Assembly: GCA_043228905.1 (NCBI GenBank) | Contig: JBHGNT010000002.1 | Location: 12,958,001-13,022,000 of the forward strand | Source: Azolla caroliniana | Taxonomy: Eukaryota > Plantae > Polypodiophyta | Direction of reading: 5' to 3' | Length of the DNA: 64,000 nucleotides | The notes under the pieces: model-generated | What the model was told of the DNA's origin: nothing | What the model saw: the letters and a program-made list of their open reading frames with translations, nothing else | Database searches by the model: none | Part shown: piece after piece, positions 15,877-45,065 of the stretch | Layout: each line of letters opens with the position of its first letter | Numbering within the stretch: the first letter of the stretch is position 1 | Translations under genes and position numbers: made by a program

Positions 15877-18800
15877 CCGAATCCGATTCCAGCGCTGAAA
15901 ATGCTTCGGATTCGGCGTCTCTTCCGGCCAAGGCCCGGAGAAGGGATTTCGCTTCCCGGAGACTGCTTAAGCTGCTTCCTTCGTCCGGGTAGGCGTTTTG
16001 TTGCAAACAAAGCGACTCCTCCGCCACTTTCCGGATCACTTTGGAAAATGATCGATCTGTTCGGATTTCTTCTGTTGCTTGCTGGAAAGCCTCTCGCCGC
16101 CTTCTTCATTCAGCAAGTCTTCGTGCTCTCTCAGTAACCGGGTCGTCTGTTGGCCTAGTCATCCATTCCCGCCGATGTTCACTGTGATTGTGCAGGAATC
16201 GTGGTCGCCAAAAACTGTTTTAATCCTAGGTCCGGACAACAGCCTAACACAGGGTGTCCACTTAAGACACTTCACCAAAGGGTGTTACGGCAAGATGACT
16301 TAGGGCACAACGCTTAATTTGACCTTAATCGATTACTTAGCAACACATCATTAATACACATAAGATATAACAATGAGTACAGAACGGTAATCAATGTTTA
16401 AAGATTAAAGCAATAAGTTCTATTAATTATCCGCTCTCGATTACATTGTAACCGGGCCTTTATATAGGTCTCCGGTGCGAAATACAAAATGGTGCTAACT
16501 AGCACCTTTTCGGGATCGGTCCGGATCCTGATCGGCATACCGATTCCGGTTCGTCCGTCCACATCTTCTCATATATTACTATATATTTTAAGACTACTAA
16601 TTACAACAGTTCCCGAATAAACTATTCCTTTTCACACTCTGGTTTGGATCTCCTTAAGCCTTCCTGCCAGTCGGTAACATCCTCCGTCGAAATTCTTCAC
16701 AAATATATAGTGGTCATCTTGTTTCTTGTGGTATGCCTGGTCAGTCATGAAGGAGTCGAACTTCCGATACCATTGTCGGGGAGCTTGCTTCAGTCCGTAT
16801 AAGCTCTTCTTCAACCGACACACCAAATGCTCCTTCCCTTTCTTCACAAATCCTTCTGGCTGCTGCATGTAGATCTCCTCTTCGAGGTCACCATGGAGGA
16901 ACGTCAACTTTATGTCTAGTTGCTCTACCTCGAGGTCCATGCTTGCCTCTATGCTCAGCACTGTCCGAATGGAAGTCATCTTAACTACTAGGGAAAAGAT
17001 CTCGTCGAAATCTAGTCCTTTCTTTTGCTGGAACCCCTTCACCACGATCTGAGCTTTGTATCTCGGTGGGTTTCTGGCATCTCCCGATTTTAGCTTGTAC
17101 ACCCACTTGTTTTGGAGTGCTCTCTTTCCTTTCGGCAACTTCGTCAGTTCATACGTGTGGTTCTCATGCAGGGAATCCATCTCATCCTGCATGGCACTCA
17201 ACCACTTGCAGTTGTGGGTGTCTTTCTTTGCTTCTTCGAAGATTTCTGGCTCCCTCTCGTTGGTCAGCAATACGTGCTCTGCAACCAGAAATCTCAGGGG
17301 GCCTCTTCTCTCCCTGAGAGGGTATCTCCATCTTTGGTCTTCGGAATCCGATTCGAGGTCTTGTCCGGTTCCAGTGTCTTCTTCTTCTTCTTCTTTGGTC
17401 GGTTCGGTTTCTTGTCCGTATTCGGCCAGTTCGTCGAGTGTCATCCGGTTTCCGGCCAACATCCAGTTTTCACCGGCCAACATCCAGTTTTCAACTGGGT
17501 AGGTCCTTGTGTCTTCAAACCGTTTTTCATTGTATTTCATCATCTTCTTCTCCGACTCCCAGTCGGTAATGGTCCTATCTTCCATGAAGACTATGTTTTG
17601 ACTCCGGAACACCTTCTTGTCTACCAGATTTGACACCCGGTAACCGAACTCATCATCGCCGTATCCAAAGAATATGCATGGCCAGAACTTCGGATCCAAT
17701 TTCGCTCTCTTGTCCTTTGCTACATGCACGTAGGTGAGACAGCCAAACACCTTCAGATGCTGGTAACATACATCTTTACCGGTCCATACTTTCTGTGGTA
17801 AGTCTCCTTCCAAGGGTGTTGAGGGCACCATCTTCCAAAATATAGAAACTCGATTAACGACATTTTTGTTCTAGAACATGATACCGATCTTCTCCCAGAG
17901 TTCATGAGCCTTACTTTCTTCTTGAAGTTGTTGTACAAGCTCATGTTGATGAAGCACCGGATGTACGCCGTCGTCTTCATGTGCATCACCGCCCATGTCC
18001 CTACATTGATCTTATTTGGTTTCTTGTCCCCAAACTATACCGGCAACCAAAGATCTTTAACCACCAGCATATCCCTCATCTTCGACTTCCACACTGAGTA
18101 GTTGGAGCCGGTGAGCTTGAACATGCTGCCGACGATTCTTCCATTTCATGTGTTGTTCGCTCCATTACCAAATTGAAGAGAAATAGCGCGGAATATTGCT
18201 CGGTTGGAATATTGCTTGGTCACAACCGAGTCTTGAATCACTTCGATGAGAATCAAACGCAGAAATGGGAAGTAGGGAATGAACGCACGTACACACACAA
18301 ACAACGATAGAGAATACACAGGATGTTTACGTGGAAAACCCTAATAGGGAAAAACCACGAGAGCCCACAGACTCCAAACTATCACTATATAAGAAAGGTA
18401 CAAACAGAGACTCAGAGGCAATGACCTCGAGCTCTGTATCTTCGCTAGCCGACGGTTACAATAGAGTATCGCTCTGTATCTCTCTCTCTCTATACAACAG
18501 TTATGCACATACAACAATATGACAACACTAATATCTGTGATTGCCCTAGGTCATATTTATACTCATATGAAATTAGGGCTATTTACAAATATAGTCTCAA
18601 TAGGCTTACTCAAAACATATTTACAAATATGTCTTCTCTTCCGGTTCTCACCGGGTCCATCCGATTCGGTTTCCGGATCTCTTGCGATTCTCACTGGATC
18701 CTCTTCATTCATAACCCGATCCCATCCGGAGGGACCGACTGACTCAAGCAAGCCCCACGTGCCTAGAACGTGAAGATCACATAGAGACTACATTGGATGG

Positions 18801-21800
18801 GGTTTGCTCCATCGAAATCAAACACTTCACTCTTTATCTGGCAAGGTCGAAACGGGCTGGTGAGCATATTGCTCTATGTGGATGACCTTGTCATCGTGGG
18901 CGCCGACCTGGACGAAATCGGTCGCGTCAAATCCTAGCTCGAAATGAAGAATATTGATGACCTTCATTACTTCCTCGGGATCGAAGTGATCGGTGTTGGG
19001 AAATAGGTCCCTCCGGATGGGAAGAGAAGAATTGATTTGGTGAGTAACTCGGCCGGCCCAAAACCAAAATCGAGGATACAAGGGTAATTCAGAAGACTAT
19101 AATTGTTAATAGTCTACAATGCCTCTTGGGGCCTATACTTGTAAATAGCCAAAAAGTTGCTTTTGTTTATAGCCAACTAGGGAAAACTTTAGTAAGTAGT
19201 AGTTGATCATTATTGTAAAGTTAGAACGAGGTAGTTGCCTCTATAACCATGAGTGAGAGAGTGAGAGTTTAACTCTCTAGCCGTCTCTTAGACGAACGCG
19301 AACTTGAGGTCGTTGCCTCCTAGTTCCGTATTTGTACTTCCTCTCGACTATAGTGATCTATTTTCTCGGGGTTTGTGGACCCCCGTGGTTTGTTCCCATT
19401 TCGGGTTTTTACACGTAAAATGTCGGTGTCTCTATGTCTTCACGGTTTTCTGTTTGTGTACTAGTTCTTGGTTTCTACACACGAATATGTTACCCGTAAG
19501 AATATACAGGGAGGTATAAGGGTATGTGTAATGATGTGGTTGATGTGTATGTGTAAAGTAAATGAGTATGTGAGGATGAGTATGTGTGAGCACATGCACA
19601 ATTATGTGCATGTGACAAGAGTGTAACGGTCGTCTCTTTTGTAACGGTCATTATTTACCGTTACATTATTGTAAAAGAATAGCGTGCGGAAGAAAATAGG
19701 AAACCGAACATAGAAACATAGGTTTAATGGAGAGCTTAGGATATACGCAGTACACGGGAGAGATAGAGAGAGAATGCACACAAACTCAATTAAAAAATAA
19801 TGCTCAGTTTGTACATCCTATGTGTTCAGTGAACACTTTTATACAAGTCCATACGGACTGACAGAAGTACGGTGTACTTCAATGCTCACACAAGTGTCTG
19901 ACACTAACTATGAGACATTAACTTCCTAGTAGTCTAGGCTGCTACTAGGCTTCCGGTTACTAATGGATCGGCTAACCGGCTCCCCAGTTCACCAACTCAC
20001 CGATCTGGTTCATCCTTCCGGATGCCAATCCGGCTCAGGCTTATTCAGCCGATCCGGATCCGGTTGAGCTTGTCGCTCAACACTCCCCCTCAAGCTCAAC
20101 TTGAGGTCGGATCGTAGTGTCAGTCTCCATGGCAGCTGGTCCCTTCACCCGGCTCCTTCTAGCGTCACTCCGCCTCGCTCGCGCTCCTTATTCAGTCCGG
20201 TCCCGTTTGCCACGACCCTTCTGTTTCTGTGCACCTTGACCTCCTCGGTCGGCTTGTTTGTTCAACAGGCCCAATTCAGCTCCCTCGTTGTTGTGACTTC
20301 GGTGCTTGCCGATTCGCCGATTCCTTCGTGTTGGCGTCAACTTTCGCTGCCTTCTCGTCATCTTGGCCTTGAATTGATCCAGTTCTTCTGAATCCATCTA
20401 TTGAACCGAATCGGCTATCTCCGATTTGTTCCAGTTCTTGTCCGAATCGGTTGTTCCCGATTCGTTTTCCTGTTCCAGGCCCTTCACCACATCGGACCAT
20501 GTCCTGGTCTTGGCGGCTCTCTCTTTCTTGACTCTGTCGCCACTGCCGCTAGTTCCGACTTGTTCAGATGTGTCAACTTCCTTTGTCAACTCGGCTCCTT
20601 TCTTTTTCTTGTCTCTCCCCTTGTCGGTTCTTCCCTTACTAGCGCAATCTACAGTCTCTTTGCCTTTGCCCGTTCCGGTGTCTTTGCTAATTCTCCCCCT
20701 CAAATGTGGCACGTCGAGATGCTGAACACAAAGCATTTCGGTGAAGTGCTGCAACTTGTCCGATCCGAGCAGTTTGGTGAAGATGTTGGCAACTTGCCGA
20801 TCCATATGAACATACCAAAGTTCGACTTCACCACTCAGAACACCCTCACGCACGAAGTGGTAGTGCACTTCTATCTGCTTTGTGCGAGCATGGAATACAG
20901 GGTTCTTGCCGAGCTGCATGCTGCTTATGTTGTCGCAGTAGAGCAGGATTGGGGTCGGCACCTCGATCCGCAAGTCTTGCAGTAGTTGCCGGAGCCAAAT
21001 GGCTTCAGAGGTGGCAACGGTAGCGCCCTGGTATTCAGCCTCAGTGCTCGAAAGGGCCATTGTTGGCTGCTTTTTGCTGTTCCACACAATAGCCACGCTA
21101 CCAAGGGAAAACATATAGCTGGAGGTGGATTGGCGATCTGATGCATCCCCGGCCCAATCGGCATCGGTGTAGCTGACTAGCTCTCAAGTTATACCATGCC
21201 AGTATAACAGTCCCCGTTCCTTCGTGCCGCTCACATATCGCAAAATTCGATGCCCGCAAAGAAGGAGCTCCACGGTCAGCTTCTGCATGTATTGGCTAAT
21301 CACGCCGACCGGATAACTGATGTCGAGTCAGGTGATTGTCAAATATATAAGGCTTCCAACGATTTGTCAGAACCGTTTCTCATCGCAGGCCGGTCCGGAG
21401 TCGGGACGGAGCTTTTGGTTCCGGTCCAGGGGTGTAGAGATAGGTCGACATTCTGTCATGCCGAACTTGTACAACATATTCAACACATAGTGTCTCTGTG
21501 AGAGAAATATGCCGTCGGGGGTTCAGATCACCTCGATCCCAAGGAAATAGTGAAGGTCCCCCAAGTCCTTCATATCAAATGTATCTGACAGCTGGGACTT
21601 GACTCGGCCGATTTTAGCGAATCCCGGTCCGGTGATGACTAGATCATCAACATACAGCAAGATGCAGACCGGATAGTCTTGACCTTGCCGGATGAACAAC
21701 GAAGAGTCAGACTTGGAGGCCGCAAACCCATCTTACGCAACCGGTGCATGATCTTTGTATTCCAAGCTCGGGGGGCTTGCTTTAGGCCATAAAGTGACTT

Positions 21801-38789: not shown

Positions 38790-41700
38790 TGTTACCCGGA
38801 CCCGGACAGTCAGTTTTACCGAACAAGTGGGAAAGCATCGAAAACGGAGTCGGTTCGGATCGACTGTTCGGATCGATGACTCAGCAGTGAACGAAGAGAA
38901 CTAAGTTAGTTAGATAATTTTGTAATTCTTGATAGTAAGTAGGAATAGTTCTTGATGAGAAAAGACCTTCGGTATACCTATAAAAGGGAACCGAAGGCAT
39001 TGTAAGAAAGGTCGTTTATTTAGTAATATAAGTTTAAGTTAGGAATATCATGTACGGATTCTGTGTTCTTCCTATTGTCTATTTTGTTAAGTGCAATCTT
39101 CCTAATTTATAACTAAGTAACGATCACGGTAATTACCGATTAATATAGTATATTTCTGTTCGTAAAACACAATTCCTTGTTAGAACGTTGAGTAGCGACG
39201 TTCACTCTTCTGTATCGGTAGTAGTTAATAATTAGCCGATTAACACAGAAGAAATTTGGCACGCCCGGTTACATCTGCAATTAAGCAGAGAACAAATCGA
39301 ATGGATGTCGTCTGAAGAGGAGACACTGGTCGGTTGTAAGCGCCCTCGTACAAGGTCAGTTACGAAGGCAGTGCAGGAAGCGTTCATTGCGCAAGAACAG
39401 CCGGAATCAAGCACAAAGTGGTCGAAACTTCCTGACTTATCCGATCAATTACCTTCAGACGAAAAACAGACGGAAGAGGTATCGTTTTACGACATTTGGG
39501 ACGATATGCCTTATACTTATTCTAAGTTCCGGGAAGGAACAGATGCGGAAGCACATGTTAGGGATTTCTTAACGACATGGGAGATTAACCATGGAGCTCA
39601 GCGATTGTCGGCAGATGCCGAAGATAAGTCAAAAATCGCTGAGTTCGTCTTATCATTAGACGGATATTCCGCCAATTGGTTTGCGCAGAACGGTCTTCAA
39701 GGATTTCCATCCTTTGAAGTGTTAACTAGTAAATTTTTACAATTATTTCATCGACAAATTCCGCAGAAGGATTTGATTGCGCAATTTTATGCGTTATATC
39801 AAGAAAAAAATGAAACAGTCTCTCAGTTTGTGATACGATTTCAAAACTTACAGCTTCAGATTTCAAGGCCGATTCCGGATAATGAATTAAAAGAAGTCTT
39901 TCTAGAAGCTGTAAAAGAACCATTAAGGACGACATTGAAAGTGTTCGATTTTTGAAATCAGACTAGCGAACAAGTAATTGATAAAGCAATAGAAATGGGT
40001 CGACCGCCGGTCAATGTTCAGAGTATGGACATGTCGGCATTTCAACGTACATTACCAACAATGGAGGAGTTACAATTTCGTCAAGCAGTTCAATGCACCA
40101 CTTGTTTAAATACGGGGCATTCAGCAATTGAATGTACGTTAAGAACACATTGTACAATATGTCATTCAAAATTACACTCAGTAGAACAATGTGAATATAA
40201 TCTGCTTAATAAAACTACAGCGTCAGTACGACAAATTTTTACTGACAATGGTTACCAAAATAACACTAATCTGTTCAATGGTTATCAAAATAATAATTTT
40301 TCACAAAATCAGCAAAATGTACAACAAAATCCAATTTTTCAACAAAATCCGGTTCTACAGCCAAATCAGATCTTTTCAGAACAAAATATGCAACCCACTC
40401 AAGTGACTCAAGCATTTCATCCAGGTTTTGCTCAATCCAACCCACCATTCGTACAGAATCCGAATCAATATTTTCAACAAAATAATCAAAGTTTCCAACA
40501 AGATAACCCACCATTTCAAGGGTTTCAACAGAACTGTCCGAATGTGCAACCGAATTCTGCATTTCAACCGAATCCGGCATTTCAACCGGGTAATATGACC
40601 TTTCAACATAATACTCAAACCTTTCCACAAAATAATCAAATGTTTCAACAGAATAATTTTCCGCCAAATCAGGAGTTCGGGATAACACAAAATTTAGCAC
40701 AACCAAATGATAATACCGAACAATTTAGGCAGAATCGGTATAAAAATAAGAAATTTTACAAACCAAAAGCTACACGTCAATTCCAACAAAACCCGAGTGG
40801 TAATGAAGAGCAACAATTTAATAACGGCCAATTTGCACATGGAGAGACCGGTGGAACATTTGTACCCACTTGTTATATTTGTCGACAACTGGGCCATTAT
40901 GCTAATCAATGTCCGGCTAAAGGAAAGGGTCCAGCAATTAATATGGTAATACCGGAAGTTCAGCAAGTAACGACACGCAGCAAAAGCAAACAATCAGAAT
41001 GGGAAATTCAGGAAGCAGTTCGGAAGGCGGCAAAAGAATGGGTTGACGAAGCAAATCAAAGTAATGTGAATCGAATGTTACAAGACAATAACATTGACCA
41101 GAACATCATTGTACAACAGTCATTGGGGAATAAGGAACAGGAAGAAACTTGGAAACTGTTCGCTGATTGCCAAGTGTCATTGCCACTTACGGGCTTACTT
41201 AAGTTAGTACCAAGGTTTACAGAAAAAGTGGCAGCATTAATTGCATATAAACGTTCCGAACAAATAGCAGTACAATACAATCACCCAAGTAATAACCCTT
41301 CGATCATGGATGAACAGAATCCGTCGATTAAGGTAATACTTTACGGGCAAGAAATCGGAAATGTGATTATAGATGGAGGCTCGGGAGTTAATGTGATTAA
41401 CAAAGCTACATGTGAAAAACTAGGAATCACGGAATGGGAAGCATGTCCGTTTTGGTTACGAATGGCAGATACAAGTACGGTACGACCGATTGGTTTGCTT
41501 CGACAACTGGATGTAATAATCGGGGGACACAATTTTCAGATTTCGGCAGTAATTTTGCAGTTAGAAGCACAGGGAGCATACCCCTTGTTATTGGGGAGAC
41601 CATGGTTAAAGACAGCTAATATCAAACAAAATTGGAAACAAAATGTGCTAACATTTAGGAAAGGAAAAACTAAGGTCAGGATTCCGACGCACAACAAAGT

Positions 41701-42153
41701 GACAACAAGCAAACAGAGTTTACCTGTACATGCAGAAACAGTTAATATGATGGAAGGATTGGACGAGGAAGAAGAAAGTCAGTATTTTAATGATAATCAG
41801 AAAATCATCCCTCTATTTGAGGTAGATATTTTGCTAGCATTAACACCATATGTAGACTCACACGAAGAAGTGCCAATAGATGAGCAAACAATGAAAGAAA
41901 TACGAATGCAACAAGAAGCTACAGATAAGGAAATAAAGGTATCTCAGAGAGTGCAAGCCTCAGCATTAGAGGAGATCGATTTGGCAGGAGTAGAGGATGG
42001 TGAAAGAAAAACAGTCTTGATTGCTAGAGATTTGGCGGAAAATGACAAACGGACATTAACAACATTACTATTACAATATAAAGACGTTTTTGCATGGTCG
42101 TTTGACGATATGAAAGGTCTGGATCCCGCTTTTTGTCAACATCAAATCAATTT
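38790..42153 (+). mobile_element. Non-chromovirus Gypsy G3, 5' half, inserted in the B3 5' LTR
   Basis: LTR 38790 to about 39247, PBS TGGCACGCCCGGT 39257-39269, gag-protease-RT start; truncated by a deletion that also removes about 30 bp of the host LTR. Confidence 0.9.
39305..42153 (+). pseudogene. gag-pol: G3 Gag-protease-RT N-terminus, one in-frame stop (39953-39955), Q/N-rich insert
   Basis: ORFs 39305-39955 and 39995-42319 are in the same frame; CTTCLNTGH, CTICHSKLH, CYICRQLGHYANQC, IIDGGSGVN, YPLLLGRPWL, YKDVFAWS. Confidence 0.9.
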
Positions 42154-42340
42154 GCTGATCCGGATCCGGTTGAGCTTGCCGCTCAACAATTATGTATTAT
42201 ATAAATCCCTTATGGGGCATCTAATGGATATACATTTTTTCCCTCTCATTTTGTGTCATTTTGTATTTGTCTTTCTCTCTTGCTCTCTCACTATCATAAC
42301 CCCCTTGGGAGGGGGGTGAAGCCCACCCCAACAACACTTT

Positions 42341-42358
42341 TGGCACACCTGAACGGAC
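42341..42358 (+). promoter_or_regulatory. PBS-like site of element X, left (TGGCACACCTGAACGGAC)
   Basis: Starts with TGG 4 nt inside the left LTR end; resembles the recalled complement of the tRNA-Arg(UCU) 3' end, TGGCACRCCCGGTGGGAC. Confidence 0.65.
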
Positions 42359-44155
42359 GACCTCCCTTGAGAAGAGGTCACTCTCCCTCTCTATCACTAA
42401 TCTCTTTGTCTGTCCCTCTCTATTTCTCTACTAGTCTTTGTGTAGAGCGTTTGTTTTTGTGCAGACACTCTTTGTATGGAGAGCCATTTGGATTAGAGGT
42501 TTTTGATGAAAGACTCTCTACATCTATGATGAGAGGTTTTTCATGAGATCAGAGATTTGAAGAAGACATGTAGAACATCCGATCACAGAAGAGTGAGAAG
42601 ATCGAAGCTCAAAGGAAATCTATAACCATGGAGGAAGTTCATCTTCAATCCTTTAGCTCTATGGTGGTGAAGTTGCACAATACTAACGGTCTTATTGCAA
42701 CTAAAGCAACTAAACTAAGAGAAGAAGCAGATGTTTCTACGGCTGAGAAGAAAAATTGATGCATAAGATTATGGGAGAAAAGCATTCTACAAGATTTGTT
42801 CTAGAGTTGCACCTTGATGGCAGGCCATCAATCGAGCACTTGCAGAAACACTTACAAAGAAAACTAATCTTCTCCCTCTCTCTCTCTCCTGCCTTCCTCG
42901 TTCCCTTTTCCCTTGGTGGTGGTAGTGACTCGAGGGTAACTTTACAGATATGTATGTACACAGACACACCCACATGATGATAGAGAATCAACAAGAGGAG
43001 GAGGAGGATCATGATGTTGACCTTGCATATGCTTGTGATGCCTTAACCAGCACCATCTCCAACAATCATCAGCCCCTTTCTACATTAATCATCTCATATT
43101 TCCTCTCTGCGTGTCTGTTTGTCTACCCCAAAGACTCTTCACAGCTATGACAACTATCATTACTCCCACTCCATCGCTTCCATCCAAGCTCTTTCCCCCT
43201 CCTATGGCAACTTTGAGCCTGAGTCTGAATCTAAATTAGAGTTATGGTGGAATGTGTAGCAATGCAAACTACAGATTACATGCCTCCAGACTTAATGTTC
43301 CTCTGCCATAGTTCAAGCTCATTGATACCCCAGTCATTCAAAATGTTTCTCTAGAAAATACAGAGTTATGGCTAGTTCCCATTTAAGATGGTTGGTTGGG
43401 ACCTAATGCGTTGAAGGAAAAACACGTAAGGCTCACTCTCACAACTATTGATGAACAGAAGATCTCTACATAACATATTGTGGAATCTTTGCACATTGGT
43501 CATTTTGACAATGAGATTGATATGTGCGGCTTGGAGAATTACCCTAGAATGATATGTACATGGCCTGATCTCCATCGAATGTTCTAAACAACTGCCATCG
43601 CCACCGCCATCGTAGTCGTCGTCGCCGCCACGCCATCATCGCCGTCGCGCCGCCGCCGCAATTAGCTAGAAGTGAAAGGTGAGAATATGAATGGAAGCAA
43701 GAAGAGAGGGGCATTCAAAAAAAAAAACTTAAGGGCAGAGAAGATGAAATTTCAAAAGCTCAAGGGCATGACATGAGATTTCAAAATTTGGAGGGCAGAA
43801 TGCAGAATTTCGAAAACACAAGGGCTCAAAATAAAATTTCAAAAAATTTGAGTGTAAAAATTTTAAAGACCAAAGGGTAAAAAATATAAAACTCACTTCA
43901 CATGATGAAAGAAAGGATACACAAATGCACAACACGATTTCATGACCCATGCTACATTGAACTAGCCGATTGGTGTGTGATCCAATCGCGACTTGTGCTG
44001 ACCAAATGAGAAGGTTCAAGTCAAGCAAAGGTCCGATCGAAGTTATTGATCATAGAGCAGTGATCCGGTCGAGGGATTTCCGACCGTTGAGACGACCAAT
44101 GGAGTTCCGGTCGAGAAGAGTTGCCATGGCGAGTGGGTTCACCATGCAATGCACT

Positions 44156-44172
44156 GTCCCACAAGCGTGCCA
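44156..44172 (-). promoter_or_regulatory. PBS-like site of element X, right (TGGCACGCTTGTGGGAC on the minus strand)
   Basis: Starts with TGG 2 nt inside the right LTR, at the position where a PPT is expected. Confidence 0.65.
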
Positions 44173-45065
44173 TGTGTTACCCGTAAGAATATACGGGGAG
44201 ACATAAGGGTATGTGTAATGATGTGGTTGATGTGTATGTGTAAAGTAAATGAGTATGTGTGAGCACATGCACAATTATGTGCATGTGACAAGAGTGTAAT
44301 GGTCGTCTCTTTTGTAACGATCATTATTTACTGTTACATTATGTATTATATAAACCCCTTATGGGGCATCTAATGGATATACATTTTTCCCCTCTCATTT
44401 AGTGTCATTTTGTATTTTTCTTTCTCTCTTGATCTCTCTCTAACTTAACCCCCTTGGTAGGGGGGTGAAGCCATTCTAGGTTTCACCCCCCACCCCAATA
44501 ACAGAATACGAACGTGGAACTGGTTGTGAGAGGTCGATTCCTAACAATCCACAACCCCGAAGGCATACTGATCTGTTAACGCCACTATGTGTTGAGTATG
44601 CTCTTAAAATTCGGTATGTCAGAATGCAAATTCGTCTCGACTCCTCTAGACCAGATTGTGAAGCTTCGCCCTGACTTTGGAATGGCATGCGACCCGAAAA
44701 GTTTCTGACAAATCGTTGGAAGCCTTTATATATCTGACCATCACCCGATCGGACCTCAACTATCTGGTCGGACTGATTAGTCAATTTATGCCACATCCAA
44801 CCATGGAGCACCTCTAGTGCGCACATCGAATACTTCGAATTGTCACTGGCACTAAGGAAAGGGGGTTGTTGTATCAAACCGGAGTAGCCGGACAGCTTGT
44901 CAACCACACGGATTCCGGTTGGGCCAGAAATATTGGCTATCGTAGGTCTACATCCGGATATTCGTTTTCACTTGGAAGCGTTGCGATCGCCTAGAGCAGT
45001 AAGAAGAAGCTGATAGTGACAATATCGAGCATAGAGGCCGAGTACCGAGGAGCGGCTATCGTGAC

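Follow-up and report, generated by a model that had tools for sequence, protein, structure and literature searches.

The window analysed here, a 64,000-nucleotide stretch of Azolla caroliniana DNA, contains a long terminal repeat (LTR) element called X that is flanked by a perfect 5-bp target site duplication (TSD), GAATA, at positions 19483–19487 and 44504–44508 of the + strand. Its left LTR begins with TG and ends with CA, and is split into a 5′ part (19488–19669, + strand; 89% identical to 44172–44342 by blastn) and a 3′ part (42189–42336, + strand; 93% identical to 44338–44472) by a 22.5-kb nest of foreign retrotransposons (19670–42188), which has its own target duplication, ATTAT (19665–19669 and 42189–42193), and is no part of X. 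The right LTR (44175–44503, + strand; 329 bp) agrees with the left at 300 of 316 aligned columns and carries a TATA-like core (44344–44354), with a pyrimidine-rich stretch after it on the + strand. The direct LTRs, the TSD and the TATA-like core had been noted in a preliminary description of this DNA, and all are present.

The interior of X opens with a 4-nt spacer (42337–42340, + strand) and site A (42341–42358, + strand), an ordinary primer-binding site (PBS) for tRNA-Arg(UCU) that starts with TGG, lies 4 nt inward of the LTR end at 42336 and is decayed in the window copy, where it matches the tRNA at 13 of 18 positions. A non-coding region follows (42359–44132, + strand) whose longest stop-free stretch is 106 codons; having no long frame in its own interior, X is non-autonomous. 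At the far end lies a second tRNA-like sequence, site B. Its core (44156–44172, − strand) is a 17-nt complement of nucleotides 59–76 of tRNA-Arg(UCU), with C66 unpaired, and occupies the position of the polypurine tract (PPT); a 2-nt spacer (44173–44174, + strand), the predicted start of the plus strand, separates it from the right LTR. Both sites had been recognized before as resembling tRNA-Arg(UCU), and host genes for this tRNA, named by ARAGORN, carry the matching sequence at their 3′ ends, mostly without CCA. Beyond what had been described, site B continues over 44133–44155, where a T-arm box (44133–44140, + strand), a copy of tRNA nucleotides 49–56, precedes an inserted hairpin (44141–44155, + strand) with a 4-bp stem and a 3-nt loop, the first pair of which is broken in this copy. 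An Rfam search of window positions 42100–44600 gave two sub-threshold matches and nothing above threshold. Matches to the tRNA-Arg(UCU) arm also cluster elsewhere (G000: C4, 19.5–19.7 Mb; C11, 0.69–0.70 Mb; C22, 1.43–1.51 Mb), and these clusters are probably gene and pseudogene arrays, judging from the C4 loci alone.

In the 30 nt preceding the right LTR of X, the longest purine run is 3 nt. All four control elements of the window, two Copias and two nested chromovirus-like elements, have a clear PPT, which agrees with the distinction drawn in the preliminary description. A search with the X LTR gave 43 matches, from 40 of 1,154 candidates scored, including 13 paired copies in which both LTRs are intact within the sequence examined (L047, whose LTR start is deleted, and the nested L036/37 were left out). 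In all 13, an identical 4-nt spacer and site A follow the left LTR, site B lies 2 nt before the right LTR, and no purine run before that LTR exceeds 3 nt. Thus, the normal PPT that other copies might have revealed is absent from every one of them. A one-off fusion of two opposite elements, also considered earlier, is excluded by the recurrence of site B in these 13 copies and in 19 of 20 coding elements described below. Furthermore, other copies carry a site B that is closer to the tRNA and extends into the T arm, and site B is a better tRNA match than site A, which in other family members matches over about 11 nt, and over 18 in some. The TSD is perfect in eight paired copies, has one mismatch in four and is missing in one. 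Interiors vary, spanning 1.4–5.3 kb without nests; their first 55 nt or so and last 430 nt or so are common to the family, and the middle is common to a subset. One X-family interior (L039:8427–9116) has a 230-codon frame that we take to resemble a fragment of a host DnaJ gene, so X may capture host RNA.

Site B is a 40-nt unit that in sense order comprises tRNA nucleotides 49–58, the hairpin, inserted after A58 of the tRNA-Arg(UCU) 3′ end, and nucleotides 59–76 without C66, finishing with the CCA end two bases before the 3′ LTR. A pattern describing this unit matches the genome 1,081 times, compared with 0 times for a reversed control, so site B is not a product of chance. When three positions are relaxed there are 1,231 matches, of which 1,081 are wobble-compatible at the three tested places. 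At 30 of 30 pattern loci the site is followed by 2 nt and then TGTT; in one family, W, 4 nt rather than 2 separate it from the LTR. Site B is kept across families whose LTRs are unlike, and its hairpin covaries among them: 57 distinct inserts include seven different fully paired stems, with 189 of 228 stem cells Watson–Crick paired against a mean of 137 and a maximum of 157 in a shuffle that ignores relatedness.

The complement of the T-arm box, on the minus strand, can by its sequence pair with the tRNA T arm, and the predicted duplex between site B and tRNA nucleotides 48–76 comprises 24–28 bp, with RNA parameters serving as a proxy. For the sense RNA, a T-stem with the hairpin is predicted at −11 to −21 kcal/mol. 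Among the hairpin cells, 11 G–T and 15 A–C combinations favour neither strand, and neither wobble direction nor hairpin strand decides which strand pairs. A mismatch to the tRNA occurs at nucleotides 59–60 in families G3 and V, with one more in a G3 subvariant.

The site B pattern is also found in 115 metagenome stretches, all from one series of assemblies. Among 80 of these matches that were examined, the spacer is 2 nt in 70, 4 nt in five and unresolved in five, and the flanks are 68–92% like loci of the present genome. Site B together with the beginning of the LTR is covered by contigs under three other organism labels (B, C and D), and a single contig of organism E has the LTR only. Viral contigs gave no match by the site B pattern or by protein.

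Site B is shared with elements that encode a complete replication machinery. We sampled 20 of 150 integrase matches, spread down the list, with frames of at least 1,900 codons and chosen blind to the junctions; 19 have site B and none has a PPT, and the 20th harbours a nested element and has no 3′ LTR in reach. These elements encode gag, protease, reverse transcriptase (RT), RNase H and integrase, then an extra 3′ open reading frame (ORF) of about 900 amino acids, and the RT–RNase H–integrase order and RVT_1-type RT identify them as Ty3/gypsy. Their LTR pairs are 94.6–100% alike, and the lineage is therefore young. A dead RNase H as the cause of PPT loss was rejected: motifs are intact in all three enzymes (RT, RNase H and integrase), the catalytic motifs of RNase H included. 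Copies of family Z (L123), of L127/128 and of G3 all read site A, pol, site B. The window itself holds a G3 PBS with truncated gag-pol inside the nest (39257–42156, + strand); intact G3 copies outside the window carry site B, which is present at 20 of 20 G3 3′ junctions. Across X and its coding relatives there is no PPT before the 3′ LTR, the longest purine runs there being 3–4 nt. A further lineage member, with a tRNA-Arg(UCG)-type PBS, lies at window positions 16198–16219 (− strand).

X is thus confirmed as a non-coding member, or passenger, of a PPT-less Ty3/gypsy lineage. The lineage pol has no match in 10 of 10 X-family interiors tested. X exchanges parts with the coding family Z, which is therefore its likely helper: L033 combines X LTRs with a Z leader, in L293 an X interior follows a Z-type 5′ LTR, and in L070 and L077 the 3′ end of a Z-type LTR is joined to an inverted X interior.

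In an RT–RNase H tree of 115 sequences the lineage forms a single clade with a support of 1.0, set among sequences from liverworts, ferns and the environment, the liverwort and fern relatives being roughly 50% identical to it. It falls outside the chromovirus-like outgroup, and no chromodomain follows the integrase by Pfam at E values up to 1. Seed-plant Athila/Tat-like sequences adjoin the group of seed-free-plant and environmental sequences to which the lineage belongs; its branch is separate from these seed-plant references, which bear no REXdb labels. No second, archaeal-type RNase H was found in pol or in the extra ORF. The latter (888–985 amino acids; for example, L063:1720–4674 and L079:94–2757, both − strand) combines a conserved block at the N terminus with a long charged region, and matches no Pfam family, with weak plant-transposon look-alikes only, including ATHILA at a score of 0.85. 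A very divergent Gypsy element, 24% identical to the lineage in RT–RNase H and with DUF4100 in its first frame, is nested at L077:3588–9325.

Families of the lineage differ in the tRNA that their PBS matches. It is tRNA-Arg(UCU) in X, Z and G3, and tRNA-Arg(UCG) in V, Y and W, the UCG type occurring in the youngest families. All 18 integrase-picked elements for which a 5′ LTR was found have a 13-nt PBS for tRNA-Arg(UCG), and in the same 18 elements site B still matches tRNA-Arg(UCU). Because the two sites match different tRNAs, site B is neither a mirror nor a pairing partner of site A, and the mirror explanation was rejected on the evidence of these UCG-primed families. Copying from either orientation, suggested in the preliminary description, is not supported by the sites themselves, which are built differently and, in the youngest families, match different tRNAs. 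Site B might instead have no part in priming, serving to circularise the RNA through site A or surviving as the relic of a copying accident, with the plus strand made by an unseen route. Complementarity of sites A and B over about 11 nt in X would suit such a role, but the sites are not complementary in V, Y and W, which largely refutes it; nor would it account for the T-arm box or the covarying hairpin, for the constant 2-nt spacing or for the lack of a PPT. We consider this explanation extremely improbable.

The reading that we favour, with a probability of roughly 0.75, is that both DNA strands are primed by tRNA, the minus strand by one tRNA at the PBS and the plus strand by tRNA-Arg(UCU) at site B, as the sequence comparisons suggest. 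Coding elements have their sense direction from site A towards site B. A host tRNA-Arg (UCU for X, Z and G3; UCG for V, Y and W) would prime the minus strand at site A, a step consistent with established LTR biology and with tRNA copies found at that site. RNase H would then remove the RNA, and tRNA-Arg(UCU) would form about 25 bp with site B of the minus strand, first through the acceptor arm with C66 bulged and then, past a DNA hairpin looped out opposite the T loop, through the T arm. Extension of the CCA end of the tRNA by RT would fix the left end of the LTR. For X, the enzymes would be borrowed from a coding family, probably Z. If so, an active plant Ty3/gypsy lineage has probably replaced the PPT with a dedicated, structured site for a second tRNA, such that both strands are started by tRNAs and, in some families, by two isoacceptors. 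Priming of both strands by tRNA, first proposed for X as a peculiarity of a non-autonomous family, thereby stands as the best-supported reading, but the trait is not special to such a family, since coding elements carry it.

Rare copies retain exact tRNA-Arg(UCU) sequence, CCA end included, with the family spacer and the beginning of the LTR following immediately, which is what one would expect if the primer had not been removed. At 19 of 29 loci examined, tRNA-Arg(UCU) is copied past nucleotide 59 at the LTR 3′ end (six by spacer likeness only), which would be the usual read-through of the first-strand primer; at L127 (G000:C1 near 14810650), a whole 76-nt copy of the mature tRNA replaces the PBS of an element with a matching TSD. 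Six loci have tRNA-Arg(UCU)-derived sequence at the LTR left end, and the remaining four hold genes, an 18-nt PBS or nothing. The left-end copies keep the family spacer and the CCA end, which is missing in most host genes. They comprise tRNA nucleotides 20–76 at L067/68 (three copies of one event), 28–76 at L069, 13–76 at L251 and 59–76 at L263, and mosaics with the hairpin at L063 and L246, the latter consisting of tRNA nucleotides 13–58 followed by the element hairpin. At L067, 135 nt of downstream flank also form part of the joint.

The two isoacceptors are found at opposite ends of the same LTR types. The left ends of Y and W LTRs hold UCU copies (L067/68 and L069), and copies of tRNA-Arg(UCG) lie at the 3′ end of Y-type or W-type LTRs in three of nine matches (L391, L393 and L396), with none at left ends among the nine. 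Indeed, L069/L265 reads tRNA nucleotides 28–76, site B spacer, 5′ LTR, UCG-type PBS, interior, site B and 3′ LTR. At L312, L328 and L396, two LTR 3′ ends of different families or of the same family stand head-to-head with a tRNA copy between them.

At L263, an element with the TSD AATAG has three tandem 5′ LTRs whose joints consist of the spacer and exactly 18 nt of tRNA. Each joint reads LTR, spacer, exact tRNA nucleotides 59–76 including C66, the 2-nt spacer of G3, LTR, and its tRNA sequence differs from G3's own site B at three positions. Such a joint resembles that of a two-LTR circle in which the primer was not removed, and 18 nt is the length at which m1A58 stops RT. A search with a tandem-junction pattern gave 58 matches. 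Most of the 47 viewed are ordinary B sites or B sites that later received an insertion; a single tandem-LTR event was present among these 47 loci, none has a tandem joint with an element-type remnant, and the two LTRs of L306 are just 72% alike.

These joints bear on a different source for the second primer, namely the element's own RNA at site B, a tRNA-like, CCA-ending piece that would survive RNase H as a PPT does and would perhaps be cut by the specificity that removes tRNA primers, with left-end tRNA copies arising through template switching. We regard this as unlikely, although the sense RNA of site B resembles the 3′ end of a tRNA and is predicted to form a T-stem together with the hairpin, the geometry is the same as that of a PPT, and switching between site B and the tRNA is proven by L246 and L063. 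Against it, both the tandem-LTR joint and the 5′-LTR joint contain tRNA-type rather than element-type sequence, the 47 viewed loci are devoid of element-type remnants in tandem joints, site B matches UCU even where the first primer is UCG, and no purine run exceeds 4 nt. Priming by tRNA-Arg(UCU) faces objections of its own. RT template switching can also join a tRNA to an LTR, because site B in RNA is homologous to the tRNA, and such switching, evident in L246 and L063, could have produced some of the joints. A tRNA:DNA hybrid should moreover be a substrate for RNase H, there is only the one tandem-LTR event, and some B variants (G3 and V) mismatch the tRNA.

The preliminary description had also envisaged copying from either transcript orientation. 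Site B would then be a PBS on an antisense RNA, with either transcript copied or each strand made on its own RNA template. Site B does match the tRNA better than site A does, antisense read-in RNA could have templated the 135-nt downstream flank in the L067 joint, and inverted chimeras exist, including L063, in which an inverted interior lies between 99.3% identical LTRs flanked by the TSD CTTCA, as well as L070 and L077. However, pol always reads from A to B in intact coding elements, which runs counter to copying in both orientations, and the second strand would still require a tRNA. The three inverted cases compare with hundreds of ordinary junctions and fit strong-stop DNA annealing to site B instead of site A. 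Nor is the TATA-like core that can be read both ways a sign of bidirectionality: the sequence TATATA is inherently self-complementary, the TATA cores of coding families are different, and the two-way form is not conserved across families. An antisense PBS is therefore very unlikely. The L063 chimera (L063:1105–8721) appears by eye to sit in a tRNA gene resembling tRNA-Phe.

We found no precedent for a tRNA-primed plus strand among the openly accessible papers searched. Unusual primer sites in the Drosophila element micropia were looked for in the literature and were not confirmed. The available part of PMC13524379 contained nothing relevant. Two sources take it as general that retroviruses and LTR retrotransposons start their plus strand at a PPT (PMC5371799, PMC6317226); Ty3 uses a tRNA at the PBS and a 12-nt PPT (PMC5371799), and a survey of plant Ty3/gypsy elements likewise describes a PBS bound by tRNA and a plus strand that begins at a PPT (PMC6317226). 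Like yeast Ty3, the lineage has a tRNA PBS after the 5′ LTR, the order gag-pro-RT-RNase H-integrase, TG...CA LTRs and a 5-bp TSD (PMC5371799). In Ty3 and Ty1 the T arm of the tRNA is also paired, through a bipartite PBS, but in Ty3 this PBS is part of the RNA and is used for the minus strand, whereas the second site of the lineage is complementary on the minus strand (PMC5371799).

Going by the accessible text of the plant survey (PMC6317226), the lineage resembles non-chromovirus Ty3/gypsy elements in its lack of a chromodomain, its extra ORF after pol and its 5-bp TSD, and shares a tRNA-Arg PBS with Ogre and TatIII. Unlike Tat/Ogre/Retand it has no second (archaeal) RNase H, and unlike Athila, whose PBS is Asp, Asn or Ala, it uses Arg (PMC6317226). 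By their described features, Phygy and Selgy (4-bp TSD, Trp or Ala PBS and no extra ORF) are set apart from the lineage, with its 5-bp TSD, Arg PBS and 3′ extra ORF (PMC6317226). That text makes no mention of a second tRNA site in Athila, Tat/Ogre/Retand, Phygy or Selgy (PMC6317226). X itself is like TRIM, LARD, Helenus and Ajax elements in having LTRs, priming signals and a non-coding interior; in the available part of that source, Helenus has a tRNA-like promoter inside its LTRs and keeps both PBS and PPT, whereas the tRNA match of X lies outside the LTR, in the place of the PPT (PMC10886601). The arrangement in Azolla is a real, lineage-wide variant of LTR replication that has apparently not been described before.

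If the tRNA-primed reading is correct, a young, abundant lineage without a PPT would show that RT is able to use a structured tRNA on DNA as the starting point of DNA-templated synthesis, and that the tRNA can be spared from RNase H. The 40-nt site and one tRNA make a short, testable substrate. Priming at site B would also explain LTR swaps and inversions between families, and annotation tools that require a PPT may miss or flip such elements. A separate locus, L256:2214–6232, contains four near-full tRNA-Arg copies spaced 1.2–1.4 kb apart, with CC(A) after three of them and spacer plus LTR-end-like sequence after all four.
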